Positions 9,086-30,704 of a stretch of 38,224 nt of DNA are shown one piece after another (the first letter of the stretch is position 1; each line of letters starts with the position of its first letter). The notes under the pieces were generated by a model that saw only the letters and a program-made list of their open reading frames with translations, did not search any database and was not told the origin of the DNA. A program made the position numbers and the translations under genes. The DNA comes from a virus: IMG/VR virus record IMGVR_UViG_3300042902_000101, positions 1 to 38,224 of that record. One strand, 5' to 3'.

Positions 9086-9123
9086 TAAACCATTCTTTAT
9101 AGTAGCTTTTAGAGAATGGTTTA
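9086..9123 (+). terminator. Hairpin terminator after the tRNA-like element
   Basis: TAAACCATTCT (9086-9096) pairs with AGAATGGTTTA (9113-9123). 11-bp perfect stem, but no long T-run. Confidence 0.55.
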
Positions 9124-9164
9124 TATAAAAGATTGATTTTTAAAAACAAGCAAAAACGCAAAAC

Positions 9165-11129: not shown

Positions 11130-11132
11130 TTT

Positions 11133-13523: not shown

Positions 13524-13525
13524 AA

Positions 13526-13816
13526 ATGGTTATAGAAAGCGAAAAACTAATAGAAAAAAACCTTTGTAGAGAGGTTAAAAAAATAGGCGGCTGGTCGATA
13601 AAGCTACTTTCTACACATTTGACCGGCTTACCCGATAGGCTTTGCTTGTTGCCTGGTGGTCGCCTATTTTTTATAGAATTGAAAACAACAAAAAAGAAAC
13701 CGACAAAAATACAATTGTTAATACATAGAAAATTAACCCGGCTAGGTTTCGACGTCTACGTGGCCGATTCTACGGAAGTTATTCTTAATATACTAAAATG
13801 CTATGAACGAAAATAA
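13526..13816 (+). CDS. VRR-NUC domain nuclease
   Basis: GLPDRLCLLPGGRLFFIELKTTKKKPTKIQ (D...E-x-K...Q signature). 96 aa, a typical size. Confidence 0.85.
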   Translation: MVIESEKLIEKNLCREVKKIGGWSIKLLSTHLTGLPDRLCLLPGGRLFFIELKTTKKKPTKIQLLIHRKLTRLGFDVYVADSTEVILNILKCYERK

Positions 13817-15185: not shown

Positions 15186-15193
15186 GAAATATT

Positions 15194-15235
15194 AAAAAAA
15201 GTTTTTATTTGGTTATTATTTTGTATATTTACAAA
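15194..15235 (+). promoter_or_regulatory. Conserved promoter P3 (AAAAAAAGTTTTTATTTGGTTATTATTTTGTATATTTACAAAATAA)
   Basis: -7-like box TATATTTA at 15224-15231. A TTTG lies about 20 nt upstream. Shares ATTTACAAAATAAT with P2. Confidence 0.5.
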
Positions 15236-15253
15236 ATAATAAATACTAAAAAC

Positions 15254-15673
15254 ATGAATAAGCAAAACCAAATAGACCAACAATATTTAAGAATGGCCCA
15301 AGTCTGGGCCGATTCTTCCTATTGCCAACGAAAAAAAGTCGGTTGTTTAATAGTTAAAAACCAAACTATTATATCGGACGGGTACAACGGGACGCCAAGG
15401 GGTTTCGATAATGTTTGCGAAAGTTCCGAAGACGGCGAAACTTTGTGGCATGTTTTGCACGCCGAGGCGAACGCCCTAACCAAAATAGCCAGGTCTAACC
15501 AAAGCAGCGAAGGGGCTACTTTATATACCACGCTTTCGCCTTGCAAAGATTGCAGTAAATTAATACTTCAGTCGGGAATAACTAGAGTAGTTTATTTAAA
15601 CGATCTATCGGATAGGTCCGGACTAGATTTCCTTTTTGAAGCGGGGATAGATACGATAAAAGGCCATGTTTAA
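15254..15673 (+). CDS. dCMP (deoxycytidylate) deaminase
   Basis: Zinc motifs HAEANAL and PCKDCSKLI. ATG 15254 is preferred over the TTG at 15209, which would lie inside promoter P3. Confidence 0.85.
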   Translation: MNKQNQIDQQYLRMAQVWADSSYCQRKKVGCLIVKNQTIISDGYNGTPRGFDNVCESSEDGETLWHVLHAEANALTKIARSNQSSEGATLYTTLSPCKDCSKLILQSGITRVVYLNDLSDRSGLDFLFEAGIDTIKGHV

Positions 15674-16055
15674 AATAATTCCAAATAAAAAGGACGGACT
15701 TTGTAGGGCGTATAGGTGCAAAAATAACCACCCTAAAAAAGACAAACTTTGCCCGAAACATAGAAAACGCATGCAAAAAGAGTCGGACCCCCTGGCCTAT
15801 ACTTTTAATCTTCTGAAATCGAACGCGAACCGACGAAATAAGGTTTTCGAATTATCTATCGAAGAATTTAAAATCTTTTGCGACGAATCGAACTACCTAG
15901 AATTAAAAGGCAAAAAAGGAAGTTCCGCTTCTATCGACCGCATAGACCCAGAAAAAGGGTATTCCCTGGATAACATACAAATAATGTCCTTATCTAATAA
16001 TTCTAAAAAGATGCACCAGGACAAAACCAACAAGGAAGAAAGCCTTCCTTTTTAG
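15666..16055 (+). CDS. HNH-type endonuclease (small, free-standing)
   Basis: N-terminal Cys/His cluster CRAYRCKNNHPKKDKLCPKH. C-terminal SIDRIDPEKGYSLDNIQIMSLSNNSKK, typical of short phage HNH proteins. Confidence 0.6.
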   Translation: MFKIIPNKKDGLCRAYRCKNNHPKKDKLCPKHRKRMQKESDPLAYTFNLLKSNANRRNKVFELSIEEFKIFCDESNYLELKGKKGSSASIDRIDPEKGYSLDNIQIMSLSNNSKKMHQDKTNKEESLPF

Positions 16056-16072
16056 TAACTAAAATTAACCAC

Positions 16073-16258
16073 ATGAAAACAACCATTTTAAAAATAGTAA
16101 TTATAATACTATTATTAATTGCCGTAATACTTTTTAATTTATGGGCCTTAAAAAATTCGTCCTATTTAGTAAAGACTATAGCCGTATTTATAAACATAAT
16201 TTTGTTTTTATCGACGCCTTTTAATTTGATTTTTAAAGACCGGAAACCTAGAAAATAA
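16073..16258 (+). CDS. Small two-TM membrane protein
   Basis: 61 aa with ILKIVIIILLLIAVILFNLW and IAVFINIILFLSTPFNLIF, and a basic C-terminus. Confidence 0.55.
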   Translation: MKTTILKIVIIILLLIAVILFNLWALKNSSYLVKTIAVFINIILFLSTPFNLIFKDRKPRK

Positions 16259-16266
16259 AGCCTTTT

Positions 16267-16339
16267 AAAAAATAATTTTAAAAAAAGTTAAAAAAAAGTT
16301 TTTTATTCCGGAAGAAGTTGTATCTTTACGGTATCAAAA
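16267..16339 (+). promoter_or_regulatory. Conserved promoter P4; 73-nt near-identical copy of 18674-18746
   Basis: Two mismatches to P5 over 73 nt. -7-like box TATCTTTA at 16321-16328, followed by CGGTATC as in P1. Confidence 0.6.
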
Positions 16340-16350
16340 AACCAAAAAAC

Positions 16351-16593
16351 ATGAAAAAATTAATTTTTAGACTTAAATACGCTTTCGGATTTATAGCGCC
16401 CGAACCGGAAACTTTAGAAGAAGACGTTATAAGAATGGCTTTATATATAAAAAAAAGCTATTCCCCAGAAAATAGGGCGATACTGGTAAATTCAGTAAAA
16501 GAAAAAACTATCCGCTTTATAGAGTTAGAACGCGACGAATATACTAAATATTTAGACGATTGCCGTTCTTCTTTGAGAAGCTTAAAAAACTAG
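16351..16593 (+). CDS. Hypothetical protein
   Basis: ATG 16351 (MKKLIFRL...) is chosen because the track start at 16318 is a TTG inside promoter P4. Confidence 0.6.
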   Translation: MKKLIFRLKYAFGFIAPEPETLEEDVIRMALYIKKSYSPENRAILVNSVKEKTIRFIELERDEYTKYLDDCRSSLRSLKN

Positions 16594-16598
16594 AAACT

Positions 16599-16877
16599 AT
16601 GGAAAATTACGACCACGACGTTATAGGGATAGGGAACCCGGACCACCCAGCGAACGAAAAAGAAGCCGAATATTTCATTTCTGAAGATTTAAAAGAATGT
16701 TTAGGCCACTTTATAGAAACTAAAGAGATCGGGCCATTAGAAGAAGCTATAGAAGTTATAAATTTTAGAATAGCCAAAGCTTCTGAAGAATTACAAGACG
16801 TTATAGTTTCCCTGGAAGCTAGCCCTTTGAAATTCAAACTAATAAATTTAAAAAAGCGACTAAATGGCAAATATTAA
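16599..16877 (+). CDS. Hypothetical acidic protein
   Basis: ATG 16599 (MENYDHD...). The track start at 16560 is a TTG that overlaps the previous gene. Confidence 0.6.
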   Translation: MENYDHDVIGIGNPDHPANEKEAEYFISEDLKECLGHFIETKEIGPLEEAIEVINFRIAKASEELQDVIVSLEASPLKFKLINLKKRLNGKY

Positions 16878-17136
16878 AATATTAGAAATAGACCGCGAAC
16901 CTAAAATTTTAACCCTGGGGCAAAATTACCATTGCACCTGGGCGGCGAAGGGTTGTATTTGGAAATTAACGGGCTTCGTTAATAGTAACCAAGTAGAATT
17001 AACTACGCCAAGGTCTAAAAGGAAAATCTACGCGAAACCTTCAGATCTTCGACTTACTGAAAGTGCGGCCGTAGTAGAAGCTAAAAAAAGAATCGTTAAG
17101 GAACTGGAAAAAACACAACTAAAATTAGCTTTATGA
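16864..17136 (+). CDS. Hypothetical protein
   Basis: 90-aa ORF overlapping both neighbours by a few nt (translational coupling pattern). Confidence 0.6.
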   Translation: MANIKILEIDREPKILTLGQNYHCTWAAKGCIWKLTGFVNSNQVELTTPRSKRKIYAKPSDLRLTESAAVVEAKKRIVKELEKTQLKLAL

Positions 17137-17561
17137 ATCCTTTAATTTACCCAAAAGATATTACCGAACTAAAATTGCATATTGACAAAAGGCTTCTAGT
17201 GGTATTTAATCAATATTTTAAAACGATGCGAAGCCCCTTCGACCCGGTAAACTATTCTTTATTTTTGGAAAAGTTGGATAAAACCCGAAAAGATAACGGG
17301 ATAGATAAGTATTTAAAACTTTCTAGGGTCTTCCGTAAAACTACGAAGGAGTACGAAACGGGTCCTTTAAACGATAGAGGTATTTTGATTAAAAAAAATA
17401 TTTTCCGCACGGGTTGTAAGTCTGGGGCGTATTCGGATAAAAAAGGCTTCGGGTATTGGGCGGATATGCATACTAAAACTAATATAGTGGTAAGCCCTTC
17501 AGATATTTTGGCGGGTGCCAGTCGTAAAGACTTTACGCATATTTTTTGGTATGTCTACTAA
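17133..17561 (+). CDS. Hypothetical protein
   Basis: 142-aa ORF with an ATGA overlap to the upstream gene. Followed by a terminator. Confidence 0.65.
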   Translation: MNPLIYPKDITELKLHIDKRLLVVFNQYFKTMRSPFDPVNYSLFLEKLDKTRKDNGIDKYLKLSRVFRKTTKEYETGPLNDRGILIKKNIFRTGCKSGAYSDKKGFGYWADMHTKTNIVVSPSDILAGASRKDFTHIFWYVY

Positions 17562-17564
17562 TAA

Positions 17565-17591
17565 AAATAACCACTTAAAAAGTGGTTATTT
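17565..17591 (+). terminator. Rho-independent terminator
   Basis: AAATAACCACT (17565-17575) pairs with AGTGGTTATTT (17581-17591). 5-nt loop and a T-run. Confidence 0.85.
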
Positions 17592-17673
17592 TCGAAAGAA
17601 TGAATAAATAAAAATTCAAAGTGCTGCAAAACATGGTACCAAAGATAGTAAATAAAAACTAATAAGTATAGTT

Positions 17674-18054
17674 ATGGACGTAAAAGATTTAAAAAAAGCT
17701 ACGGTTATGGTCGATTTATTGAAAAATACCCTTGCCGAAATTGATACTTTAAAAAATAGCATAGAAGAAACTTTCGACGGCGAAAATAGCGCCTACTTTA
17801 AAATGGACGTTATCGAAGCCCCTAAAGAAGTAAACCCAAACGGGGGTATCGCGTTAGCCGAGGCCCTACAAATAATTAGCGAAAACTTCCATAAAAACTT
17901 ACATAAGATTTCGGAAGGCGTAGCCATACTAGAAGAAATAAAATTTAATAACTCGGATTGCGTTTCTATTTTAACTTTAATGTTAGAACTAAAGAAGAAG
18001 CAAGCCCGAAATTTGCAAGAAGGTTTAAAAGAATTAGGAATCGAAATAAATTAA
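17674..18054 (+). CDS. Hypothetical coiled-coil protein
   Basis: 126-aa ORF, helical and charged in composition. Confidence 0.6.
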   Translation: MDVKDLKKATVMVDLLKNTLAEIDTLKNSIEETFDGENSAYFKMDVIEAPKEVNPNGGIALAEALQIISENFHKNLHKISEGVAILEEIKFNNSDCVSILTLMLELKKKQARNLQEGLKELGIEIN

Positions 18055-18059
18055 TAAAA

Positions 18060-18356
18060 ATGTCAAAAGGAACAAACACCGTAATACTTTTTAAAGGCGA
18101 AAAACATGTAGGGACGCAAAGCGTTTCTATCGACGAAGAAAATTGGGTTTCATTATCCCACAACGGTAGCGAAATAACACTATCAAAAGAAAACGCCGAC
18201 AAACTATTTAAACTTTATACTAGAGTAGTCCAGGACAAAGAAAACCAAATTACACTATTCGAAAAAGGTACTTGCGTTTGTACCGGGCCAATATCCTGGG
18301 CCGTGGGTGGTTTTTGTGTATCTTGCAACCTTAAAAAAAATACGACTAATGAGTAA
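18060..18356 (+). CDS. Hypothetical protein with a C-terminal Cys cluster
   Basis: ATG 18060 (MSKGTNTV...). CVCTGPISWAVGGFCVSC near the C-terminus. The upstream part of the track ORF overlaps the previous gene. Confidence 0.6.
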   Translation: MSKGTNTVILFKGEKHVGTQSVSIDEENWVSLSHNGSEITLSKENADKLFKLYTRVVQDKENQITLFEKGTCVCTGPISWAVGGFCVSCNLKKNTTNE

Positions 18357-18675
18357 ATCGAATACTAACTACGACGAATTAAGCCTCCTTATACTAAAAG
18401 CAGTAGAAGAAGAAACGTATTTCGATAAGGTTAAACTAGTCCCAAAGATTAGAACCGTATTAAAAATGTATAGGATAAACCTAGCTACGGCCAATTATCA
18501 CAAAGTAGAAAACCCGAGTAGATCGGCGGCCAGACTTCGGCAATTAGAACGCGAAGAAGTGAGTAAGCATTTTTGGAAGAAGAAAGCGGAATTTTTAGAC
18601 CCGGAAAACTTGCAAAAGAATTGCCTAGAACTGGACGCTTTGCTGGAAAAGTACGGTTTCGAAATAGGTAGATAA
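18349..18675 (+). CDS. Hypothetical protein
   Basis: ATG 18349 (MSKSNTNYDEL...), overlapping the upstream stop by 8 nt. Confidence 0.6.
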   Translation: MSKSNTNYDELSLLILKAVEEETYFDKVKLVPKIRTVLKMYRINLATANYHKVENPSRSAARLRQLEREEVSKHFWKKKAEFLDPENLQKNCLELDALLEKYGFEIGR

Positions 18676-18746
18676 AAAATAATTTTAAAAAAAATTAAAA
18701 AAAAGTTTTTTATTCCGGAAGAAGTTGTATATTTACGGTATCAAAA
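18674..18746 (+). promoter_or_regulatory. Conserved promoter P5; 73-nt near-identical copy of 16267-16339
   Basis: -7-like box TATATTTA at 18728-18735, followed by CGGTATC. Confidence 0.6.
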
Positions 18747-18769
18747 TAACAATAAATAAATAAGATACC

Positions 18770-18940
18770 ATGGTAGCAATAGAAAACAATAAAAACGTAT
18801 ATATCCAGAATAAAATGATAATCGCGTATTCTTCTAGTACTGATTTTTCGGAATACACAATTTTAGCGACGGGTTTAGATACCGAAAGGAAAACTAAAAA
18901 CGCTATTGCAAAACTAAAAAAATGTGGATCATTAAATTAA
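18770..18940 (+). CDS. Small hypothetical protein (56 aa, below the ORF-track cutoff)
   Basis: ATG 18770 lies 35 nt after the P5 -7 box. MVAIENNKNVYIQNKMIIAYSSSTDFSEYTILATGLDTERKTKNAIAKLKKCGSLN. Fills the gap before 18947. Confidence 0.45.
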   Translation: MVAIENNKNVYIQNKMIIAYSSSTDFSEYTILATGLDTERKTKNAIAKLKKCGSLN

Positions 18941-18946
18941 AAGACC

Positions 18947-19711
18947 ATGTTATCGCAAAACGAAGAATATAAAAGAATCAATAACGTAATATATAAAGGG
19001 GGCGACCCTTTTATAAAACTACAAAGTACATTTATAGACCTAGATTTTTTTAGGCCCGAAGCTATTACTTATATGAATAGTTATTTAAAAATGTACCCGG
19101 ACAAATTCGAAATAATTAAAAGTATGAATAGAATTATTAAAATGTTTTACGACCTGGAAACTACCGGGGTAAATGTTAAAATACATGGGGTCCACCAGAT
19201 TTCGGGCTGCATAGAAATAGACGGCGAAGTAGTCGAAACTTTTAACTTTAAAGTTAGGCCGAACCCTAAAGCGAAAATAGAACCGGAAGCGCTGCAAGTT
19301 GGGGGCGTTACAGAAGACCAAATTATGCAATACGAAGAAATGCGTTCCGTTTACGTTAAAGTCGTGGATATGCTCGCTAAATACGTGGATAGATTTAACC
19401 CAAAAGAAAAAATTTGGCTAGTCGGATTTAATAATAGAAGCTTCGACGATGTATTTTTCCGTAGTTGGTTCGAACAAAATAAAGATTCTTTTTTCGGGGC
19501 CTGGTTTTGGTCCGATTCTTTAGACGTTCTGGTCCTGGCTTCGCAATATTTATTAAATAGACGAACTTCGATGCAAACCTTTAAACTTAAAAGGGTGGCC
19601 CTGGAATTGGGTATTCCCGTAGACGAATCTAAACTACACGACGCGGCCTACGATATACAATTAACCCGCGAAATTTACCGAATAGTTACCGGCATAGAAA
19701 TAGAAATTTAA
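18947..19711 (+). CDS. DnaQ-like DEDDh 3'-5' exonuclease
   Basis: ExoI MFYDLETTG, ExoII GFNNRSFDDVFF, ExoIII HDAAYDIQLT. Confidence 0.85.
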   Translation: MLSQNEEYKRINNVIYKGGDPFIKLQSTFIDLDFFRPEAITYMNSYLKMYPDKFEIIKSMNRIIKMFYDLETTGVNVKIHGVHQISGCIEIDGEVVETFNFKVRPNPKAKIEPEALQVGGVTEDQIMQYEEMRSVYVKVVDMLAKYVDRFNPKEKIWLVGFNNRSFDDVFFRSWFEQNKDSFFGAWFWSDSLDVLVLASQYLLNRRTSMQTFKLKRVALELGIPVDESKLHDAAYDIQLTREIYRIVTGIEIEI

Positions 19712-19724
19712 ATTTAAAAATAAT

Positions 19725-20270
19725 ATGTATACCGGAAAAGAAATTTGTCAAGGGTGTAAAAAAACAGGACAAGAAGAAAGAAGATTTTATAAAAATGATT
19801 TGTGCGAACCTTGTAAAAATGTTCTTCGAAAAGGAAATTCTATTGAATTTGAAAATAATATAGAATACATACAAGTAAAAGATTGGTACAATGGATTTAA
19901 TAGTATTGAGTTCCGTGATAAGTCCCTAGATACTTTAGCAAATCGTTTTTTTGAAAGTCTAAATAATAGATACGCCAAAACTTTAGGTTTCGAAAATACT
20001 AAAAGAAGCCAACCCCACGGTTATGTTTTTTACAATATCCCAAAAGATATTTTTGAACACTTAAATAATTTTTTAAATGAATTAAATATTAATATTTCTG
20101 AAATTAAAAAAATGAAAGAAGATTCTGAAGAATATGCTAGAAACGCTGTAAGAGAAGAAAAAAACAAAATATATAATGAAGGTGTTGAAAAAGGTAGGGA
20201 ACTTTTATTTAGTTTAAATAATGGCTCAATAACAATGGAAGATTTTAATAAACGTATAAATAAATTTTAA
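19725..20270 (+). CDS. Zinc-ribbon protein, function unknown (in the CpG-poor island)
   Basis: N-terminal CQGC...CEPC (two CxxC pairs). Asn/Lys/Glu-rich remainder. Confidence 0.6.
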   Translation: MYTGKEICQGCKKTGQEERRFYKNDLCEPCKNVLRKGNSIEFENNIEYIQVKDWYNGFNSIEFRDKSLDTLANRFFESLNNRYAKTLGFENTKRSQPHGYVFYNIPKDIFEHLNNFLNELNINISEIKKMKEDSEEYARNAVREEKNKIYNEGVEKGRELLFSLNNGSITMEDFNKRINKF

Positions 20271-20274
20271 ATAT

Positions 20275-20460
20275 ATGATACCAATAGCTAAAAATTTACA
20301 AGAGGCTTTAAATCACTTTGAAGATAACAATAGCCCAATATTTTGCCAACAAGGTAAAAAAGCAAGTAAAACTTGTAACAGTTTAGATGAAGCAAAATTG
20401 TTTTATGCTAAAAACGCAAAAAAGATAAGATATAGAGTAACACCCATTAAAACCAAATAA
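20275..20460 (+). CDS. Small hypothetical protein (in the CpG-poor island)
   Basis: 61-aa ORF with the same atypical composition as 19725..20270. Confidence 0.5.
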   Translation: MIPIAKNLQEALNHFEDNNSPIFCQQGKKASKTCNSLDEAKLFYAKNAKKIRYRVTPIKTK

Positions 20461-20461
20461 G

Positions 20462-20773
20462 ATGCAAGGAAAATATTTAATTACTACCGATTCATGGTTC
20501 CACGGACCCGACGGTAAACAATATAGAGCAGTTTGGGGCGAAGTTAAAATTCTATCAGACGAAATACTGGGACTTAAGACTAACGCCCGTAGTTCTAACT
20601 GGTTCGCCCGAATAGGGACCGAAACAAACCACGTAATCGTCGCGGGGTGCCAGATACACTACGCACTAAAAACAGAAAAAGAACCCAATGCCGGACCGGC
20701 CGAAGATTATTCCGTAGACGAGGGAAAAGTGGCCGAATATTTTAGACCCTCGCATATTTATATAGCTAAATAA
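20462..20773 (+). CDS. Hypothetical protein
   Basis: 103-aa ORF starting 1 nt after the upstream stop. Composition returns to the genome norm. Confidence 0.6.
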   Translation: MQGKYLITTDSWFHGPDGKQYRAVWGEVKILSDEILGLKTNARSSNWFARIGTETNHVIVAGCQIHYALKTEKEPNAGPAEDYSVDEGKVAEYFRPSHIYIAK

Positions 20774-20811
20774 AACCCAAGGAATACCGGAAGGCGCCCT
20801 AGTCGACTGGT

Positions 20812-20826
20812 TAAACAATAATATTA
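20812..20826 (+). promoter_or_regulatory. Third copy of the iteron-core 15-mer TAAACAATAATATTA
   Basis: Identical to 22695-22709. One indel relative to 5909-5924. Ends 21 nt upstream of ATG 20848. Confidence 0.5.
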
Positions 20827-20847
20827 ACAAGATTAAAACCAAAGAAA

Positions 20848-21336
20848 ATGAAAAAAATTAGTTTATTTATTGCGCTTTTAAGCGTATGCGCGGCAAATGC
20901 CCAGATTAAAGAAGTACAAAAAGAAGCGGTAACTATCGCGGTACTAGTAGACCCTAAAGTAGTATTAGAAGACGATTCCCGAAACCTGGCTTTCGAATTG
21001 GAATATATTTCCTATAACGTCTACGTAAGGGCAAATATTAAAAGTATGCCAGACTTCGAAACCGGATATTTCGACTGGGGCGGGACTATTGGGACCAACT
21101 TAACCAACGGAAAAGAAACGGTAAGATACTACGGGGGTTTAAAAATAGCTACGGCCATAATAGGGGGCAAACATTACGCATTAACCGGCGGCGAAATCGG
21201 CGTAGACTTCTACAATTGTAATAAAATATTCATGGGCTTAAGGTTTTCTTCTGACTATTTAAGCCACTTTACCCCGGTAGAAGAATCTTCTAGGTATATT
21301 AATAGCGCAAGCTTCCGAATTGGGTATAAATTCTAG
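20848..21336 (+). CDS. Secreted outer-membrane beta-barrel-like protein
   Basis: Signal peptide MKKISLFIALLSVCAANA|Q. Alternating-hydrophobicity strands. Ends with the aromatic OMP-type motif FRIGYKF. Confidence 0.6.
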   Translation: MKKISLFIALLSVCAANAQIKEVQKEAVTIAVLVDPKVVLEDDSRNLAFELEYISYNVYVRANIKSMPDFETGYFDWGGTIGTNLTNGKETVRYYGGLKIATAIIGGKHYALTGGEIGVDFYNCNKIFMGLRFSSDYLSHFTPVEESSRYINSASFRIGYKF

Positions 21337-21340
21337 CGCC

Positions 21341-21739
21341 ATGACAAAAGAAGAAAAAATAATTGAAGCATACGGCGAAAGCTGGGATAAATTGCACCCG
21401 GCCGCTAGAGCGTGCGCCCTAAAAAATAACGGTTGGATAGGTAGTATTATTTCGCACCCACCAATAGACGTAAAACTTACCCTAGTTTTTCAAGGGTTAA
21501 CTTTCAGACCTAAAAGCCTGGAAGGTATCGAAACTAATAACGGTTGGGTAAAAATCTATCGTAAAAATGATTTGCCGCAAATGGATTGCGATTTATTCGT
21601 CCTAGATAAAGAAACCGGTTTACACTTTGGCCGCTGGGAACTTTCGGAAAATGAAAAACAAAACGAAGAAAATAGAACTTTTTGGGTCAAAAATGTAAGC
21701 CACTACAAAATATTAAATATTAAAAAACCCCTATATTAA
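21341..21739 (+). CDS. Hypothetical protein
   Basis: ATG 21341 (MTKEEKII...). The track start at 21320 is a TTG overlapping the OMP gene. Contains NNGW twice. Confidence 0.6.
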   Translation: MTKEEKIIEAYGESWDKLHPAARACALKNNGWIGSIISHPPIDVKLTLVFQGLTFRPKSLEGIETNNGWVKIYRKNDLPQMDCDLFVLDKETGLHFGRWELSENEKQNEENRTFWVKNVSHYKILNIKKPLY

Positions 21740-21742
21740 GGC

Positions 21743-21973
21743 ATGGAAATAAACGGTATAATATACGAAAGACGGGATTTAAAAAAGCCGTCGGGCAAGG
21801 TCCTAGAAGTTATAGCTTTGGCCCAAATGTTTGGCGGCTTAAAAGTAAAAACCCTAAACGTAAATATTATAGAAGAATTTAAACTTATTCAATTAAAAAA
21901 GTCTAAACTATCCCGAGCCGATAGGGATTTTATCGAACGTAAATTTAACAACCATTTTAAAAAAGTAGTATGA
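21743..21973 (+). CDS. Hypothetical protein
   Basis: 76-aa ORF, tightly packed. Confidence 0.55.
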   Translation: MEINGIIYERRDLKKPSGKVLEVIALAQMFGGLKVKTLNVNIIEEFKLIQLKKSKLSRADRDFIERKFNNHFKKVV

Positions 21974-22215
21974 AGAAAATTATATTAATTGTAGGCGACC
22001 AGGGGACTGGAAAAACTACGCTAGCCAATTCTTTTAAAGGTGCCAAAGTTTTGGAAATGTTAGAAGATCATACGTATTCTAAAGAAGAAATAATAGCGAA
22101 GAACGACTTTGTAGTTTTAACGTACCCAGGTACAAATATTTTCCTTAAAAAGAATATAGAAAAAATGGCCGAAGAAAAAAGCGCGAAGTTTTTCTATTGG
22201 AATCTAAACAAGTAA
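21970..22215 (+). CDS. Miniature P-loop protein (81 aa)
   Basis: Walker A IVGDQGTGKTTLA at residues 7-19, with a possible Walker B-like DFVVL. Too short for a standard NTPase. Confidence 0.55.
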   Translation: MKKIILIVGDQGTGKTTLANSFKGAKVLEMLEDHTYSKEEIIAKNDFVVLTYPGTNIFLKKNIEKMAEEKSAKFFYWNLNK

Positions 22216-22225
22216 TAATATAGAT

Positions 22226-22606
22226 ATGAAGGTAGAAAAATTTAAAGCAGCTAGGGCCAAACTTTTGGCAAAAAAGAAGGAACAAGAAACCCAAATAGAT
22301 ATAGAATATACTAAAATTTGCGACGCTTTCGTAGAAGAAAACATAGCCGAAAAATTACATTCGGTTTACGAAATGGTTAAAGGGTCCGGAAGCAAACCTA
22401 AAAACTTCGATAGATTTATAGTCTACACTAGAGATATTAGGTTCCTAGGCCTGGACCCTATCGTTACTTTAGGGGGCTGGTGGCTAAATTCGGAAAACTT
22501 GCCGGAAAAATGGGCGTCGTACGTTGTTTACGGAATTGCTAACAATACGGTTTTTACCCTATCCAGCAACCAGGAAAACAAGAACCACCCAAAAAGCGAA
22601 GATTAA
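22226..22606 (+). CDS. Hypothetical protein
   Basis: 126-aa ORF, the last gene before iteron element B. Confidence 0.6.
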   Translation: MKVEKFKAARAKLLAKKKEQETQIDIEYTKICDAFVEENIAEKLHSVYEMVKGSGSKPKNFDRFIVYTRDIRFLGLDPIVTLGGWWLNSENLPEKWASYVVYGIANNTVFTLSSNQENKNHPKSED

Positions 22607-22975
22607 ATAGTAAACAAAGGTAAACAATAATAAACAATCATTGTTTACGCAAGAAACCCAACGAGGGTAAGGGCTAACAAGGAAGTAAACAAAGTAAACA
22701 ATAATATTATAAAACTTTTTAATTATATAAATATATAGATTTTATATATTTAGGGGGTATATATAATATATACGGGCAAATTAAAGTTTTTGGGTTTTTA
22801 TTGTTTACTTTTACCCTTTTTAGCCCTATTTTGACTTTTAACTTATTGATTTCCAGGCTATTAGTGGGTAAACAATGCCTTTTTTCTTTGTTTACCAGGC
22901 CGTCGTAAATCTTTGAGCCTCAAAGGGTTAGCCGTAAACAATAATTGTTTCTTTTGTTTCTTTGTTGTTTCTTGG
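22607..22975. promoter_or_regulatory. Non-coding iteron element B, paralogue of 5821-6110
   Basis: Forward GTAAACAA copies start at 22610, 22620, 22685, 22694, 22868 and 22934, and TAAACAAT at 22631. Reverse TTGTTT(A/C) copies start at 22641, 22801, 22888, 22945 and 22954. Palindromes at 22631-22648 and 22936-22950. No credible ORF. Confidence 0.75.
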
Positions 22976-22996
22976 TCTTTTTTGGCGTTCTTTTAT

Positions 22997-23004
22997 TATA
23001 TTTG
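22997..23004 (+). promoter_or_regulatory. Bacteroidota-type -7 box TATATTTG upstream of the packaging genes
   Basis: Exact TAnnTTTG match, 27 nt before ATG 23032. Confidence 0.5.
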
Positions 23005-23031
23005 TATTGTATAAATATAAAATAAAAAGTT

Positions 23032-23484
23032 ATGGCTTATTCAGATTTGGAAAAGGACCAAATTTTCGACGATGTTATCGAAGAAATTATAGAAGGGCGT
23101 TCTTTACGAAGCATTTTAAAAGACAAAGGTATGCCTTCGGCGTCCAATTTCTTAAGGTGGCTTTCGTTGGACGAACTAAAACAGAAACAATATGCGCGCG
23201 CGTGCGAGGCTCGGGCCGATTATTTATTCGAACAAACTATCGAAATCGCAAATAATACGGAAGCGGGAACGGAAACGACGGTAGATCATAACGGTATAAA
23301 AATAGTTACTAAAGATATGCTAGGCCACCGAAGACTAAAAATCGACGCGATACATTGGCATATATCGAAAATGAATCCGAAGAAATATGGTAATAAAATC
23401 GACCTTACAACGGACGGCGACAAAATAGAAAACGCCGCGCCAGTTTGGGCCTTTATTAATGCGGAAAAAACAGAAGATAAATAA
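23032..23484 (+). CDS. terS: Terminase small subunit
   Basis: N-terminal HTH-like GRSLRSILKDKGMPSASNFLRWL, then KQYARACEARADYLFEQTIEIAN, a pattern common in phage small terminases. Sits directly upstream of TerL. Confidence 0.7.
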   Translation: MAYSDLEKDQIFDDVIEEIIEGRSLRSILKDKGMPSASNFLRWLSLDELKQKQYARACEARADYLFEQTIEIANNTEAGTETTVDHNGIKIVTKDMLGHRRLKIDAIHWHISKMNPKKYGNKIDLTTDGDKIENAAPVWAFINAEKTEDK

Positions 23485-24852
23485 ATGAATGTTTTAAAAG
23501 AGTACCAGCCACTTTATATCGACGAAAATTTTTACCAAGCCGATTGTTTCGGCGGCCGTGCCGGGGCTAGGTCTTATTCATTAACCCAGCATGCACTATA
23601 TAATCTTCTTTATACCCCTATTTTTCGTAGTTTCTTCATTCGCGAAGTACATTCTACGATATATAGTTCTATGTGGCAAGATTTAAAAGACCGGGTTTCG
23701 GAGTACGAAGAATTGCACGGCGTTTCTTTATCCGGAGTTATTGAAATTTCAGATAATAAGAACGGCGAAAACTACGCAAAGAATAAAAAGACCGGGGCGT
23801 CTATAACGACAAAAGGGTTTAAAATATCGTCGGGCAATCAAACGGCGAATTTAAAGTCTTTAGCCGGGGCCACGCATTTATATATAGATGAGTGCGACGA
23901 AACCAGCGAAGACGCTTTTAGAAAATTGAAGTTGTCCTTCAGAAAAAAGGGGGCGCAAATTAAGATAGTAAGGGCTTTTAACCCGCCATTCGCCGGGCAT
24001 TGGATTTGGAAGGACTACGACCTTACAAAAGTAACGGCGGCAAGTTTGCGAAGTATGGTTTACCAGGCTTCGAACCTAGACCCTAAAATTATAGAAGAAC
24101 AACTAGCTAGAAACAATAAGACGTATTATACGGCGAAAATTAAGCCGGACAAAAAGAATTATATTTGTATTAATACTAATTTCTTGAATAACTACGAAAA
24201 CTTAAACCCGCAACTTTTTGAAGAATTTGATACTATTTTTAAGGACGATTTCCACTACTACTGCATACATATTCTAGGCCTTATACCGAACGAAGAAGGC
24301 GATACGGTTTACAACGATTTTAACCTGGGCGATAATTTTACCGAGAAAACGGCAAGACCTGGCGACGTTTTACATATTGGTATGGATTTTAACATTACCA
24401 AAATGTCGGCCGTCGTTCACATAGTAGAAGAAAAAAATAAATATGCGGTCGAAGAATTTACTAACCTTTTCGATACTTACCAAATGTGCGAAGCTATACG
24501 AAGCCGTTTCCCTGGCTACAAAGTAGTAGTTTATCCCGATGCCAGCGGCCAAAGTAGAAGCACCAGCGGGGCTAGTGATGTCGATATAATTAAAAGTTTT
24601 GGCTTTTCGGTAAGGGCGCCGAAAAAGAATGGTTTTGTAAGGGACCGAATAAATATGGTTAATTCGGCTTTCAGAAATAGAACGTACTTTGTAAATACCT
24701 TTAGATGCCCGGACTATACCCTAGCTTTGCAAAAGCTTAAATTCAAGAACGGCGAACCGGATAAGTCTTCGGGCTTCGATCACGTAGTAGACGCCGGCGG
24801 CTATTTTATAGTAAACCAGCCCCGCGTAATTTCTGGGTCTTCGAACCTATAA
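23485..24852 (+). CDS. terL: Terminase large subunit
   Basis: Walker A-like CFGGRAGARSYS, Walker B HLYIDECDE. C-terminal nuclease acidic residues in HIGMDFN, VVVYPDASG and DHVVDAGGY. Confidence 0.85.
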   Translation: MNVLKEYQPLYIDENFYQADCFGGRAGARSYSLTQHALYNLLYTPIFRSFFIREVHSTIYSSMWQDLKDRVSEYEELHGVSLSGVIEISDNKNGENYAKNKKTGASITTKGFKISSGNQTANLKSLAGATHLYIDECDETSEDAFRKLKLSFRKKGAQIKIVRAFNPPFAGHWIWKDYDLTKVTAASLRSMVYQASNLDPKIIEEQLARNNKTYYTAKIKPDKKNYICINTNFLNNYENLNPQLFEEFDTIFKDDFHYYCIHILGLIPNEEGDTVYNDFNLGDNFTEKTARPGDVLHIGMDFNITKMSAVVHIVEEKNKYAVEEFTNLFDTYQMCEAIRSRFPGYKVVVYPDASGQSRSTSGASDVDIIKSFGFSVRAPKKNGFVRDRINMVNSAFRNRTYFVNTFRCPDYTLALQKLKFKNGEPDKSSGFDHVVDAGGYFIVNQPRVISGSSNL

Positions 24853-24875: not shown

Positions 24876-24908
24876 CCGCAAAGAATAATTAATCTAAAAA
24901 CTAATAAC

Positions 24909-25385
24909 ATGCAAAAAAAGGCAAAGAGTGAAACCAAAGAAGTAAGCAGAACTTTAAACAAAGACGAATCGTACCAAGAAATTTATTCCGGTTTTAGGGA
25001 ATCGGTAGCCCAAAGGCTAGAAGAATTTCTAACGACTGAAGAAGAAAACGGAAAAAGAGTCCCTAACGGCAAAAGGTTAAATTCCGAAAGCAAAAAGCAG
25101 CTTCTTATCCCTTTTTTAGATGAAAAAGGCTTCGACAATTTACAGAAGATAAGCGACGAAGCACTACTTATAAGTTCGAAGTCTTCGAAGCAGCCAAAAG
25201 AGGTTCGCGACGTAATACTTTCACTTTGTACCGCTATAGTTTTACGATACCAATTAAAACTTAACGATGCAAAAAACCAGGAAGACGCAAAAATTAAAGC
25301 TAAAGAAGAAGCCAAACTAAAAAGGGCCGAAAAAGCTAAAGCCAAAAAAGATGCCGAAAAGACCCCAATTCTTAAAAAGGTTTAA
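24909..25385 (+). CDS. Hypothetical Lys/Glu-rich protein
   Basis: 158 aa with the C-terminal tail KAKEEAKLKRAEKAKAKKDAEK. Confidence 0.55.
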   Translation: MQKKAKSETKEVSRTLNKDESYQEIYSGFRESVAQRLEEFLTTEEENGKRVPNGKRLNSESKKQLLIPFLDEKGFDNLQKISDEALLISSKSSKQPKEVRDVILSLCTAIVLRYQLKLNDAKNQEDAKIKAKEEAKLKRAEKAKAKKDAEKTPILKKV

Positions 25386-28016: not shown

Positions 28017-30704
28017 ATGAGTTATATTTTATATATCAATAGCGTACAAATAGACCTAAAAGAAGCTAGGGAAATTTCACTTTCTAAACAAGTGGACGAT
28101 ATAGCCGTACTATCTACTAGACAAACTAATTTTTCTAAACAATTAAAAATAAAAAATACCGCGGCAAACGAAAAGGCCCTAGGCTATTTGGGGGTCGTGG
28201 GTAATTCTTCGAATACGCCATATACTAAAAACGACGCCGATTTACTAGACGCCGAAAGCGGGGAATTTATAATATATAAAGGCTGGGCCGTTATTCTATC
28301 CAGGGACGAAGAATATTATACTATCGCAATTTATGACGGTATGATAGATTTCTATAAAGCGATAGATAACAAGAAAATGAGCGATTTGGACCTAACCGAA
28401 ATAAACCATTTTAGGACTATTACCACTATCCAGGATTCAATACTTAATAATTTACCTTACAAATATATTATTGCAGACTATAACGGCGGCGGTACTATTT
28501 TAAACGAGCCTACAATAAACGCCGACTATCTTATCCCGGCGGTTAGTATTCCGTGGCTTTTTGCAAAGATTTTCGAAACTTACGGCTTTACTTTTTCCGG
28601 CGAATTATTTAACTACGACGATTATAAGGATCTTTGGCTAACTTACCCAAAAGGTACGACGGTAGGACTAGACCAGACCACGCCACTTCTGGACGTTACT
28701 AGTTCTTCGGCCATATATAGTGGGGGCCAAACTTTGGTACCAATAGACTTAAATACCTACCTTTTAACTGCGGGACTTATCCAATACACGGCCCCGAATA
28801 ACTACGAATTTTATATTTGCCCGAGCGAAGGACAAATTCGCGTTTCTTACCATACATATAGGTTCGAAGCTACCTATATTTATAACTCGGGACAAATAGA
28901 ACAAGATACTTTTACTTGCCCTTTGATTGTAGAAAATAGAAATTCGAATACTTTTTATACAATATTATTTAACCAGGAATTATATATACCCGTTCAAGAA
29001 GGGGACGAACTATATTTTTATGCCTCGGCAATTTTTAGACAAAACGCCGGAGGCTACGCCGATTATGTTATCGGGGACGGGAATTTTACGCTAGATCTAT
29101 ACCAGGGCGAAGCGATAGATTTTAAGGAAGCTTTCGATAAATTGTTAATCAAAGATTTTATAAACGAAATTTTGTGGCTTTTTTGCCTAACACCTTTTAA
29201 AAATAGATATACTACGAATATACATTTTCTTACTTTTAACGAACGAGTACTTACCCCAATGGCTAGCGACTGGTCCGAAAAATTTATTCGTTTGAAATCC
29301 GAAAAATATATCTTCGGGGCCTACGGAAAAGAAAATACACTAAAACATAAATATAACGCAAGTAACGCCGATTATAACGACGCTTTTTTCTCTATCGAAA
29401 ACGAAAATTTAAAAGATTTCAAGACGGTAATACAATCTAAATTTTATACGCCGGAATATTTAAAGGAAATAACGGTAGACGATAGGCTGGTTAAGACTTA
29501 TAAATTATGGAATAAAGAAATAAAAGATAATAGCGCCGTAAAATATAAAGCCCTAGATAACCGTTTTTATTTTATAAAATATACCGATACGGTACTAACT
29601 AACCCGGTAACTATTGCTAGTAGTGCTTTGGGTGCTAGTGCGGTATTTAATTCTTTACCTTTAGAACGAAACGACGGGCTAACCTTTAGCGAAATTAAAA
29701 GAAAATGGTATTCTAAACTAGGCTACGTTTTGAATAAAACGAAACTTTTAGAAATACAAGTTTATTTAAACAAAAACGATTTCCAAAATATAGACTTTAC
29801 AGAAAAAATATATTTGGAACAATTAGGCGGGTCTTTTTTATTAAATAAAGTTTCGAATTTTGTACCTAATAAACCTACTACCGTGCAAGTTCTGAAGATA
29901 AACCAAACGGAATTAATAGAAACGGAGTTCGGCCCAGGTGGCGGGACCGGAATAACTACGCTAGTGCATGATATAACGCTGGAAGCCGAAGTACCAACTA
30001 ACTACGATTTTAATATTACTAACGAATTATATATCGGGGTGGTTTTAGGCCCTAACGAAGTTATTTCACAAATAGAGTTCCAAAACTATAACGGGGGCTT
30101 ATTAACAACCTTCGGCGACGATATTATCCAAGGGGCCGGAGTGGTTCAATTTGGGAATGTATTAACTTTACATTCTTTAAATATAGATAATACGTACGAC
30201 TACACGGTTACGCCCAGAATTTTTACATATAATTATCATGTTTATATTTTGAATACTTTAACAAATGTTTTAACTTTGGCTTATAATGTAGTTAAAAATT
30301 TTACTATTAATTATACGGAAGCTTGGGGCCGTTCTTTGTCTTTAAATGTTTCAAACGGTGGGCAAGATACGCAATACCTAAACAACGATTTCGAACTGAA
30401 CGCACCCTTACGACCTAACGAAGTTATTTCGCACATTATACCAATAGATTTCGACCAGGAACCTGGGCCGACTAGTGAATTTTGGGCCGTAAATATTATA
30501 GCCATGCAAATAGGGGTACAAGCTAATTTTGTGGACCAATTAGTTATAGAACCCCACAAAGTAGACGGGACGTATATTCCACCAACTGGGACGCAATACG
30601 GTTTAACAATTTTTTACGAACTTTGGGCGTATAATACTAATACTATGACTTACAGACTTATATACAACTATTGTTCTATTCAAGCAACGCTTACTTATAA
30701 TTAA
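28017..30704 (+). CDS. Putative tail fibre / host-recognition protein
   Basis: 895 aa, Asn/Tyr/Thr-rich and beta-type in composition. C-terminal internal duplication marked by PNEVIS(Q/H)I. Confidence 0.6.
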   Translation: MSYILYINSVQIDLKEAREISLSKQVDDIAVLSTRQTNFSKQLKIKNTAANEKALGYLGVVGNSSNTPYTKNDADLLDAESGEFIIYKGWAVILSRDEEYYTIAIYDGMIDFYKAIDNKKMSDLDLTEINHFRTITTIQDSILNNLPYKYIIADYNGGGTILNEPTINADYLIPAVSIPWLFAKIFETYGFTFSGELFNYDDYKDLWLTYPKGTTVGLDQTTPLLDVTSSSAIYSGGQTLVPIDLNTYLLTAGLIQYTAPNNYEFYICPSEGQIRVSYHTYRFEATYIYNSGQIEQDTFTCPLIVENRNSNTFYTILFNQELYIPVQEGDELYFYASAIFRQNAGGYADYVIGDGNFTLDLYQGEAIDFKEAFDKLLIKDFINEILWLFCLTPFKNRYTTNIHFLTFNERVLTPMASDWSEKFIRLKSEKYIFGAYGKENTLKHKYNASNADYNDAFFSIENENLKDFKTVIQSKFYTPEYLKEITVDDRLVKTYKLWNKEIKDNSAVKYKALDNRFYFIKYTDTVLTNPVTIASSALGASAVFNSLPLERNDGLTFSEIKRKWYSKLGYVLNKTKLLEIQVYLNKNDFQNIDFTEKIYLEQLGGSFLLNKVSNFVPNKPTTVQVLKINQTELIETEFGPGGGTGITTLVHDITLEAEVPTNYDFNITNELYIGVVLGPNEVISQIEFQNYNGGLLTTFGDDIIQGAGVVQFGNVLTLHSLNIDNTYDYTVTPRIFTYNYHVYILNTLTNVLTLAYNVVKNFTINYTEAWGRSLSLNVSNGGQDTQYLNNDFELNAPLRPNEVISHIIPIDFDQEPGPTSEFWAVNIIAMQIGVQANFVDQLVIEPHKVDGTYIPPTGTQYGLTIFYELWAYNTNTMTYRLIYNYCSIQATLTYN

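Follow-up and report, generated by a model that had tools for sequence, protein, structure and literature searches.

Paired iteron-bearing elements at the borders of a Bacteroidota phage replication module are putative replication origins

Analysis of a Bacteroidota phage contig uncovered two collinear non-coding paralogues, both on the plus strand, which we term element A (~5825-6107) and element B (~22610-22972). The contig (the window, 38,224 nucleotides) is circular, because positions 1-127 are identical to 38098-38224. From their sequence, A and B are probably two copies of a replication origin, the reader of whose iterons would be a PrimPol-SF3 helicase (Rep) that the phage itself encodes. 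The origin reading is well supported because the elements have the architecture of staphylococcal pathogenicity island (SaPI) origins, the phage encodes a homologous winged-helix initiator, iterons and winged helix appear to change together among relatives, and some relatives carry the same architecture next to rep. Marine and clinical Bacteroidota phages of this group are widespread but have hardly been studied, and the origin reading, if correct, would give their two largest non-coding regions a candidate function.

Architecture and setting of the two elements

The first-pass annotation had described B as a diverged paralogue of A in the same orientation, and alignment bore this out. The local alignment of A with B scored 110 (z = 23.5), whereas 500 dinucleotide shuffles gave 26.7 ± 3.5 and at most 45. 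When A was compared to the whole window on either strand, B was by far the best match, and the runner-up scored 42. A candidate third copy (a match at query positions 17613-17736) was rejected, as it was element B itself in query coordinates. All five of the collinear blocks described in the first pass were recovered in both elements, namely TAAACAAnnnTTGTTTACGC (5845 and 22631), a TAAACAA doublet with an AT-rich core (5901 and 22686), GTTTTTATTGTTT (6001 and 22794), TTAACTTAYTGATTTSCA (6041 and 22838) and AAACAATAA...TTGTTTC (6073 and 22936), as was the 64-nt spacing between the first two blocks in A and in B.

The unit shared by the two elements is an iteron of 7-9 bp with the consensus GTAAACAAT. 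Its TAAACAA core occurs 33 times genome-wide (16.2 ± 3.8 expected), and A and B, at 662 nt together, contain 16 of these where 0.30 would be expected (Poisson P = 1.6e-22). There are 11 iteron-like sites in A (6 of them perfect TAAACAA) and 13 in B (10 perfect). Both elements share one order. A left array of direct iterons closes with a palindrome, and a spacer then leads to an iteron doublet, which is separated from an inverted doublet by an AT-rich core of ~80-100 nt.

Element A directly follows a terminator-like, GC-rich hairpin with A- and T-run flanks (5790-5816) at the end of the late/lysis operon; this hairpin was the sole informative feature in promoter and terminator scans, and analogous hairpins precede A-type elements in relatives. 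The left array of A (5825-5862, plus strand) consists of GTAAACAAA at 5825, a degenerate ATAAACT and the palindrome TAAACAATAGTTGTTTAC (5845-5862), and left arrays with such a palindrome are found at ~50 related loci. A spacer (5863-5899), conserved in length and free in sequence, places the palindrome 64 nt from the direct doublet ATAAACAAATAAACAATA (5900-5917, plus strand), which forms the left core arm. The core itself (5918-5997, 84% A+T), a putative DNA-unwinding element, is the fourth or fifth most AT-rich 80-nt peak genome-wide, and its right arm is made of the inverted iterons TTGTTTT, TTGTTTC and TTGTTTA (5998-6023, minus strand). Further downstream are a conserved 18-mer, TTAACTTACTGATTTGCA (6041-6058, plus strand), identical at 16 of 18 positions to 22838-22855, and distal iterons (6071-6107), with GAAACAAT on the plus strand and two copies of TTGTTTC on the minus strand. 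Some relatives have TTGATTT-like motifs in the same relative place as the 18-mer. Adjoining A, 5' of the first early gene, is a promoter-like repeat (6111-6194, plus strand; an A-tract, AAAGTTT, ~20 nt, then TAnnTTTAC). It is one of five copies, the others being at 8314, 15169, 16266 and 18673, and we take this family to be a putative Bacteroidota-type promoter. A sigma-70 promoter scan, which does not cover Bacteroidota promoters, gave matches at chance level.

In element B, the left array (22610-22648, plus strand) has three direct copies of GTAAACAAn with 10-nt phasing and the palindrome TAAACAATCATTGTTTAC (22631-22648), and this region is 78% identical to P2559Y 43005-43128. The spacer (22649-22684) again sets palindrome and doublet 64 nt apart, and is followed by the direct doublet GTAAACAAAGTAAACAATA (22685-22703, plus strand) and the core (22704-22793), also a putative DNA-unwinding element (85% A+T over its first 80 nt). 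The right arm (22794-22808, minus strand) has a degenerate GGTTTTTA and then one perfect inverted iteron, ATTGTTTAC; that there is only one counts against the origin model. Beyond it lie the counterpart of the 6041-6058 18-mer, TTAACTTATTGATTTCCA (22838-22855, plus strand), and a convergent pair of distal iterons (22868-22895), GTAAACAAT on the plus strand and TTTGTTTAC on the minus strand. These are followed by a small hairpin, CTTTGAgccTCAAAG (22911-22925), and a distal palindrome, GTAAACAATAATTGTTTC, with TTGTTTC repeats after it (22934-22972). The hairpin and the palindrome at 22936-22950 are the two B-specific features that had been picked out in the first pass, and both are present.

The genes around A and B agree with the initial description of a bracketed 16.8-kb replication module. 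Upstream of A are genes for a holin (4029) and a lysozyme (4526) and one further ORF. Between the elements are genes for a DUF2800 exonuclease, a gp2.5/Enc34-type SSB, a family A DNA polymerase, the PrimPol-helicase, a VRR-NUC-like nuclease, an SNF2 helicase, a dCMP deaminase and others. Directly 3' of B is the first late gene, an Sf6-type small terminase subunit gene, terS (23032-23484, plus strand; PF20901 E=1.2e-31, phrog_1482), followed by terL, which starts at 23485.

The position of B immediately 5' of terS would suit a packaging site, and A and B could accordingly be sites for the first headful cut, resembling pacL and pacR of SPP1, in which repeated boxes flank the cut site on both sides. 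Headful packaging has been reported for the related phage TCUEAP1 (PMC7237756), which fits such a role. However, A has the same architecture 17 kb away from terS, and elements are found after rep, far from terS, in other relatives. In relative L172, the gap between SNF2 and terS is just 70 nt and holds no element. Moreover, some TAAACAA relatives encode, in the terS position, a protein dissimilar to this TerS (BLASTP E=0.62), and TerS was rejected as the iteron reader on the same grounds. We thus regard packaging sites as an extremely unlikely explanation for the elements; a pac site could overlap the distal, B-specific part of B (22868-22975).

Other markers were also considered. A structured RNA was rejected, since the sole Rfam match in the window was a tRNA at 9006-9077, with no structured RNA family at A or B, and spacer sequences are not conserved. 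GC skew rises monotonically and is uninformative as an origin marker because all genes are on one strand. A literature search found no mention of these repeats for P2559Y or TCUEAP1, nor of iterons for flavobacterial phages.

A candidate initiator and its match to the iterons

The proposed iteron reader is the 796-aa product of 11133-13523 (plus strand), a PrimPol fused to a VapE/D5-like SF3 helicase (PF05272 E=5.5e-84; phrog_256). It matches SaPI1 Rep1 (PDB 7PDS) with E=3e-69 (phmmer), and an AlphaFold2 model of a 413-residue construct (pLDDT 89.4) matched 7PDS in Foldseek with E=5e-38 and TM 0.85-0.89 for all six chains over 432-439 columns, along its whole length and with the C-terminal winged helix included. 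This winged helix (residues 737-792; 13341-13508, plus strand) has, in the AlphaFold2 model, a recognition helix, NMSRYNTREINDIMK, and a beta-hairpin wing; in construct numbering, it comprises helices 357-364 and 374-386 and a beta-hairpin at 390-410, with pLDDT ~87-93. The only replicative helicase candidates in the window are this SF3 PriRep and the SNF2 protein, and none of the early proteins scanned (Pfam for all, PHROGs for about half) matched DnaB, a loader or a gp38-like protein.

If the winged helix reads the iterons, the two should vary together. Within a set of 20 TAAACAA phages, no part of the helicase is better conserved than the winged helix, with a mean identity of 75% (81% in the recognition helix) compared to 65-67% for the enzymatic domains. 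Where the iteron differs, it has switched in all copies of a genome together, to GAAACAA in L136 and L142/L143, to TAAACAG in L141 and to GTCTCAA in both elements of TCUEAP1. These switches are accompanied by changes in the protein: relative to its closest TAAACAA kin, L141 carries two substitutions where the recognition helix begins, S>Q and Y>W, and a wing residue that is N in all TAAACAA phages is K or V in the GAAACAA phages. The recognition helix also differs in more distant Reps that go with other iterons. In total, at least eight iteron types are paired with different recognition helices or wings, although these represent few independent events: three independent switches in the close family and five or six distant comparisons that are confounded by divergence. 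Four further metagenomic contigs examined for CTD variants, L171, L178, L179 and L180, are too short or N-masked and yielded no element. A further cluster, 'CTAACAG' in L153, was rejected as an iteron array, being a coding pentapeptide-type repeat.

The same architecture is also found directly after rep in several relatives, including L175 (TGACAACA), L172 (GTATAC), L173 (GTGAACA), Enterococcus phage phiFL4A (GGATAC) and Staphylococcus phage 47. The iteron is different each time in this rep-adjacent position, and the architecture travels with Rep and not with the module borders. In the window, the next gene begins at 13526, 3 nt after the rep stop at 13523, leaving no origin directly 3' of rep; A lies 5 kb upstream of rep and B 9 kb downstream. 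That neither element adjoins rep, unlike in SaPIs and the Firmicutes phages, is an observation against the origin model.

The location of A and B at transcription-unit borders, where operators could also sit, likewise speaks against that model, and the first-pass annotation had suggested that the elements set the temporal switch at both module borders. In this scenario, A and B would be operator arrays at which a phage regulator represses or activates the early promoter beside A and the late promoter beside B. One candidate is the product of the first early gene (6286-6702, plus strand; 138 aa), whose N-terminal half resembles a Cro/XRE-type helix-turn-helix (HTH) by eye. A lies between the terminator-like hairpin and the promoter-like repeat, and B just 5' of terS; the HTH-like gene is kept beside A-type elements, always as the first early gene, and palindromic sites fit dimeric regulators. 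However, in the relatives with a rep-adjacent element the architecture sits inside the replication operon, where no switch would be expected (in L172, L175 and phiFL4A it is mid-operon and far from the early/late border), and the promoter-like repeats of the window are beside A and not within it. In addition, inverted iteron doublets set at a fixed geometry around a ~100-nt AT-rich segment are typical of an origin rather than an operator. The putative regulator also has no Pfam or PHROG match, and TAAACAA phages share only 44-45% identity across its HTH region. Even where the iteron is identical, its putative recognition helix is highly variable (mean identity 45%, minimum 18%, against 75-81% for the helicase winged helix), which makes the HTH-like protein the less likely reader. 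Together, these data make operator arrays improbable. Of the original proposal of duplicated regulatory or origin elements, comparative evidence thus favors the origin half, and the temporal-switch role finds no specific support.

Based on the putative origin function, we propose the following model. The winged helix of Rep would read the iterons of A and B, and Rep oligomers would assemble on the iteron arms, by analogy with SaPI Rep. These oligomers may then melt the AT-rich core and self-load, after which Rep would prime synthesis for the phage's family A polymerase. The sequences show the repeat architecture, how well it is conserved, its concerted change with the winged helix and the kinship of the helicase to a proven initiator. 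Rep binding, melting and initiation at A and B, and the firing of both copies rather than one, are what we infer from these features.

Conservation and possible roles of the two-copy layout

The two-copy bracket layout is present in every relative in which both borders are visible (P2559Y, TCUEAP1, L140, L149, L158 and L166) and in many uncultured contigs, and spans a large group of Bacteroidota phages, with Croceibacter, Elizabethkingia and Bacteroides as hosts of relatives. Bacteroides phage BF486P2, whose two elements are clearly paralogous and whose iteron is not definable, probably shares this layout. When the palindrome alone was used as a query, it retrieved 44 loci, the large majority of which had replication-module genes beside the cluster, and the helicase gene was seen in all 13 loci whose flank reaches that far. 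Of 48 distinct elements, 46 keep palindrome and doublet 62-66 nt apart. This spacing is fixed despite a free spacer sequence, which points to a defined nucleoprotein complex. Equivalent AT-rich cores in relatives measure 85-125 nt, and many relatives have perfect 19-nt inverted arms.

In this phage, P2559Y, L149 and L158, A and B within a genome are more similar to each other than either is to its counterpart in another genome. This homogenization indicates that A and B exchange sequence, and it would also be expected if they were recombination linkers, as the first-pass annotation had proposed, or a passive duplicated boundary, with no dedicated binding protein. Such elements would persist mainly because homologous exchange, between the two copies or between phages at these sites, swaps or excises the replication module. 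Consistent with such reshuffling of modules, terS type does not follow helicase similarity: for example, this terS type is absent from L133, whose helicase is 75% identical, and present in L147, at 63%. However, synteny is continuous across A and B in the closest relatives with visible flanks, where the genes to either side of the element are homologous (A in L131; B in L005/L007), and mosaic junctions also occur elsewhere, for example between terS and terL in L007. The longest identical run that A and B share in the window, ~12-13 nt, is a poor substrate for homologous exchange. Finally, fixed spacing, iteron orientation rules and iteron switches that match protein-domain changes are not expected of passive linkers. 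Linkers without a binding protein are therefore very unlikely, and what stands of this proposal is that A and B exchange sequence and that modules reshuffle, with no junction mapped to the elements.

If A and B are origins, they may form an obligate pair with different jobs, in which one copy fires and the other, coated by Rep, acts as a fork barrier or terminus. We consider this division of labor possible, if on balance unlikely. The barrier might set off concatemer synthesis driven by recombination, a switch of the kind proposed for SPP1 oriR. Alternatively, early replication might be confined to the 16.8-kb arc of the module, amplifying it before the late genes are replicated. As a by-product, Rep-coated elements might insulate early and late transcription units. 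Obligate-pair roles, if true, would account for the retention of the bracket layout from Croceibacter to Elizabethkingia phages, and the concerted evolution of A and B would follow from selection on one protein to read both sites.

Whichever roles the two putative origins have, their conserved position at both borders poses the question of why there are two and why there, which is approachable in the cultured phages P2559Y and TCUEAP1, whose hosts are Croceibacter atlanticus HTCC2559 and Elizabethkingia anophelis. The natural series of iteron and winged-helix variants offers a dataset for a protein-DNA recognition code, and the grammar of doublet, AT-rich core and inverted doublet could be used for origin annotation in metagenomic phages and for replicon design in Bacteroidota.

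Comparison with known replication origins

Lambda ori with O protein and the oriV/Rep systems of theta plasmids resemble A and B in having repeated initiator sites beside an AT-rich unwinding element. They differ in using a separate initiator, host DnaB loading and a single origin that is often inside the initiator gene, and their proteins are not homologous to those described here. Phage P4 is closer in organization. Its alpha protein combines primase, SF3 helicase and origin binding with a C-terminal winged helix, and it recognizes one iteron at both ori and crr, which are several kb apart and both needed in cis. One multifunctional primase-helicase thus reads the same iteron at two loci, as we propose here; however, alpha has a different primase type, spacing and positions differ, and crr is not a complete origin, whereas A and B each have a full core.

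In SPP1, oriL and oriR are both bound by one origin-binding protein, and it has been proposed that a fork stalling at the protein-bound second copy causes theta replication to give way to concatemeric replication (PMC6316719), which provides a ready-made hypothesis for the second copy here. As in SPP1, two similar origin-like sequences (repeats and an AT-rich unwinding element) occur in one genome of 38-44 kb, with headful packaging and all genes on one strand. The copies are ~13-17 kb apart on the circular map, with one outside the replication genes, and the window phage too encodes an exonuclease, an annealing SSB and a junction nuclease. In contrast, the initiators are unrelated: SPP1 recruits the host replisome and relies on gp38, a loader (gp39) and a DnaB-type helicase (gp40). 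Furthermore, oriL is inside gene 38, and oriL and oriR do not enclose the replication module.

The closest likeness is to the origins of Staphylococcus aureus SaPIs, which contain 6-12 iterons and a central AT-rich region with at least two oppositely oriented iterons per side, and which are read by the C-terminal winged helix of Rep (PMC9371898). The proteins share a homologous VapE/D5-like SF3 core, a fold that matches at TM 0.87-0.89 and a winged helix, with a fused primase as in PriRep5 (PMC9371898; 7PDS, 7OLA). With 11 and 13 sites, A and B agree with the SaPI iteron-count grammar, and oppositely pointing sites flank the core in both (a doublet and three sites in A; a doublet, one perfect and one degenerate site in B). 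As in SaPIs, iteron sequence appears to vary between elements along with the C-terminal domain of Rep. Unlike the single SaPI ori directly 3' of rep, there are two copies here at the borders of the replication module. Their iterons are 7-9 bp long rather than 5-6 bp, and they have an extra upstream array that ends in a palindrome at a fixed distance. SaPIs are also satellites, whereas this phage is a Bacteroidota siphovirus of lytic appearance that encodes a family A polymerase of its own. The origin reading would extend the paradigm of a self-loading Rep and its iterons beyond Gram-positive satellites, to lytic-looking phages in a different phylum. The SaPI-type origin grammar is already published, and the putative two-copy, module-bracketing form in Bacteroidota phages is a variant of it.

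Two elements flanking the replication module

The window is a phage contig that closes into a circle, positions 1-127 being identical to 38098-38224, and all its credible genes lie on the + strand. Its late arc runs from terS (23032; Sf6-type, PF20901) through terL (23485), the tape-measure protein (30711), head protease (34913), portal (262), collagen-like tail fibre (2122) and holin (4029) to lysozyme (4526). The early arc (6286-22606) encodes a DUF2800/PD-(D/E)XK exonuclease, an Enc34/gp2.5-type SSB, a family A DNA polymerase, the 796-aa PrimPol-VapE helicase (Rep), a VRR-NUC-like nuclease, a SNF2 helicase, a dCMP deaminase, an RNase T-like exonuclease and numerous small ORFs. Two non-coding elements occupy the gaps between the arcs, A in 5789-6285 and B in 22607-23031.

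Several features elsewhere on this map deserve mention. The terminal overlap (1-217, 38038-38224) falls within an array of 15-nt tandem repeats resembling AAAGCAGAAGCTAAA, so the number of repeats where the contig circularises may be an assembly artefact. In ORF 2122-2964, 9-nt repeats (CTGGACCTA; 2438-2572) code for the collagen-like Gly-Pro-Thr stretch of the tail-fibre-like protein. Between the SSB and DNA polymerase genes lies a tRNA gene (9005-9078), called tRNA-Tyr with an unusual ATA anticodon by ARAGORN and barely above threshold in Rfam (31.5 bits vs 29). An 81-aa ORF at the end of the early module (21970-22215) holds a P-loop (Walker A) fragment alone, with weak matches to many AAA/GTPase families, and could be either a remnant or an NTP-binding protein of very small size.

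The first-pass annotation had described A and B as paralogues in the same orientation that bracket the replication module, which proved correct on all three counts. Every conserved block it listed was present at the position it gave, and both elements have the same 64-nt spacing between the first two blocks. Local alignment of A with B scored 110, vs 26.7 ± 3.5 for 500 dinucleotide shuffles (z = 23.5), and B was the only strong match to A on either strand of the window. The similarity is real and far above chance.

A and B share a common grammar built on the iteron TAAACAA. Each opens with two or three direct GTAAACAAn repeats at ~10-nt phasing, a left array that ends in the palindrome TAAACAATnnTTGTTTAC. 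After a spacer of free sequence come a direct doublet, TAAACAAnnTAAACAATAA, an AT-rich core of 80-90 nt (84-85% A+T), inverted iterons 3' of this core and, beyond them, distal iterons in both orientations. The two cores rank fourth and fifth among the genome's AT-rich peaks. Counting one-mismatch variants, A contains 11 iteron-like sites and B contains 13. TAAACAA occurs 33 times in the window (16 expected), and 16 of these copies fall within the 662 nt of A and B, where 0.3 would be expected (P = 1.6e-22). Both elements also carry, at the same relative position, an 18-mer that is not an iteron (TTAACTTAYTGATTTSCA; 6041-6058 and 22838-22855). TTGATTT/TCAA-like motifs are seen again at this position in some relatives (contigs L122, L032 and L157), and the 18-mer may bind a second factor, possibly from the host.

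A terminator-like hairpin (5790-5816) precedes A, and a promoter-like repeat (6111-6194) follows it. This repeat is one of five, all in the early arc (the others at 8314-8397, 15169-15252, 16266-16349 and 18673-18756), which consist of an A-rich tract, AAAAAGTTT, ~20 nt and TAnnTTTAC, with 94% identity between the copies at 16266 and 18673. Probably they are Bacteroidota-type -33/-7 promoters from which the host polymerase reads the early transcription units.

The two-border layout in related phages

Matches of a 19-kb query to cultured-phage DNA came via B alone, which is 78% identical to the region 5' of terS in Croceibacter phage P2559Y. This phage has the gene order of the window and both elements: the first (23620-23830) follows the lysis genes, and the second, which runs across the record end (42870 to ~200), precedes terS. 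The latter contains a tandem duplication of the unit formed by left array, spacer and doublet (42870-43153), and in contig L038 the complete cluster is repeated in tandem (792-1144 and 1449-1801). The element thus tends to duplicate locally.

A palindrome-only scan of viral contigs, together with terS-seeded and helicase-seeded searches, yielded ~50 loci, each with 8-16 copies of TAAACAA per ~400 nt. Each cluster was in one of two places, 5' of the first-early-gene homologue or where the early module ends, in the latter case often directly before terS. Wherever both borders were visible (the window, P2559Y, L140, L149, L158 and L166), the pair bracketed the replication module. Most of the 44 palindrome-only loci fetched had replication-module genes adjoining the cluster, with the helicase itself visible in 13. 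The geometry was also conserved: palindrome and doublet were 62-66 nt apart in 46 of 48 distinct elements, and in many relatives AT-rich DNA of 85-125 nt lay between core arms that form perfect 19-nt inverted repeats.

The layout extends to the cultured Elizabethkingia phage TCUEAP1, whose helicase is 50% identical to that of the window and whose elements (24880-25215, after the M15 peptidase gene, and 230-375, before terS) both use GTCTCAA. Bacteroides phage BF486P2 likewise has a paralogous non-coding pair before its early and late modules (6771-6963 and 30383-30576), sharing a near-identical stretch, AAAGTTTCTAAGGAAAATAGTGAAAAC; no iteron could be defined from these two segments. A separate cluster of TGCCAT/ATGGCA repeats lies at ~29650-29900 in the same phage.

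The PrimPol-VapE helicase as candidate reader

We infer the functions of A, B and Rep from sequence, structure prediction and comparison. The 796-aa protein (11133-13523) contains a VapE-like SF3 helicase core (PF05272, E=5.5e-84) and matches PDB 7PDS by sequence (E=3e-69), the DNA-bound Rep1 initiator-helicase of staphylococcal pathogenicity island SaPI1 (PMC9371898). An AlphaFold2 model of residues 384-796 (pLDDT 89.4) aligned over essentially full length with all six 7PDS chains (TM 0.85-0.89), and its C-terminal end forms a helix/recognition-helix/beta-hairpin winged helix. SaPI Reps are self-loading helicases that double as initiators, and their C-terminal domain includes a winged helix that reads iterons of five or six nucleotides; their origins hold 6-12 iterons, at least two per side in opposite directions, with an AT-rich region in the centre (PMC9371898). 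The cores of A and B match this description, and among the roles that the first-pass annotation had offered, that of origin elements has the best support.

Tracing distant Rep homologues with other C-terminal domains to their own records revealed the same architecture beside rep. In a Siphonobacter contig (L175), the gap directly 3' of the rep stop holds the grammar built from TGACAACA: an inverted site, three direct repeats, an inverted site, a ~40 nt spacer, a doublet, ~110 nt of AT-rich DNA and inverted repeats. L172, with the same replication module, has GTATAC iterons (doublet, AT-rich core, second doublet) at the rep 3' end and only 70 nt between its SNF2 gene and terS. GTGAACA iterons lie 3' of rep in L173; Enterococcus phage phiFL4A has 12 GGATAC iterons and the same core directly 3' of rep, and Staphylococcus phage 47 resembles it. 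These post-rep elements indicate that the grammar accompanies this Rep family, and their position is that of SaPI origins. In the window's lineage, comparison suggests that the element was relocated to, and duplicated at, both borders of the replication module. The proposal that A and B set a temporal switch at these borders is unsupported, because relatives carry the same element inside the replication operon. In the temperate Firmicutes-type relative L174, ~8 ATTTCA(G) repeats (10900-11010) just 5' of a Terminase_2 terS, distinct from its small post-rep set of ACAACAC iterons, may serve as a pac or regulatory array.

Within the close family, the iteron changes in all copies of the element together: it is GAAACAA in L136 and L142/L143, TAAACAG in L141 and a TACACAA/TAAACAA mix in L004. 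The protein varies alongside. The recognition helix of TCUEAP1 (GTCTCAA) differs, that of L141 starts with S>Q and Y>W changes relative to its nearest TAAACAA-using kin (L147, L149), and a wing residue is N in every TAAACAA phage and K or V in GAAACAA phages. L150 shares the C-terminal domain of L141 and has degenerate arrays in which TAAACAA is mixed with a second motif. Its TAAACAA arrays (3600-4440 and 17650-18590) are thinned, with AGCTGGTTTAC at the iteron positions of other phages, and may be an iteron switch caught midway; a ~130-aa ORF is inserted between its element and terS.

Across 20 TAAACAA phages, no part of the helicase is as well conserved as the winged helix, with a mean identity of 75% (81% in the recognition helix) vs 65-67% in the enzymatic domains. 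The HTH-like first early protein, another possible reader, is 44-45% identical across the same phages and its putative recognition helix is very variable. As for TerS, the protein at the terS position in L140 and L139 is unrelated to that of the window, and their iteron is identical. Together, these comparisons, which comprise few independent events and no formal test, favour the helicase as the reader.

Two copies per genome and known dual origins

Near-identical genomes aside, A in the window, P2559Y, L149 and L158 was most similar to the B of its own genome (scores of 110, 187, 113 and 211, respectively), vs 38-86 between the A elements of these phages. This likeness reaches into the AT-rich core, a segment that selection of the iteron type should leave free. 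The two copies thus evolve in concert, via gene conversion or repeated re-duplication. The suggestion that A and B act as recombination linkers fits concerted evolution and the discordance of terS type with helicase similarity, but gene order is kept across the elements in close relatives with visible flanks, at least one mosaic junction lies away from them, and the longest run identical between A and B in the window is ~12-13 nt.

In Bacillus phage SPP1, oriL and oriR, separated by ~13 kb, are similarly organised and gp38 binds to each of them; fork stalling at gp38-bound oriR is the proposed trigger of concatemeric replication (PMC6316719). Headful packaging of concatemers is reported for TCUEAP1 (PMC7237756) and the window encodes an Sf6-type TerS, which make an SPP1-like division of labour between A and B plausible. 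The element is undescribed in the P2559Y and TCUEAP1 papers and elsewhere in the literature searched.

Origins composed of iterons and AT-rich DNA, with a self-loading SF3 initiator-helicase as their reader, are a known kind. Dual origins also have precedents, in SPP1 oriL/oriR and in the ori/crr of P4. Three features appear new: the origin's conserved relocation to, and duplication at, the two borders of the replication module; a fixed geometry that includes an auxiliary array ending in a palindrome; and a distribution across a large group of Bacteroidota phages.
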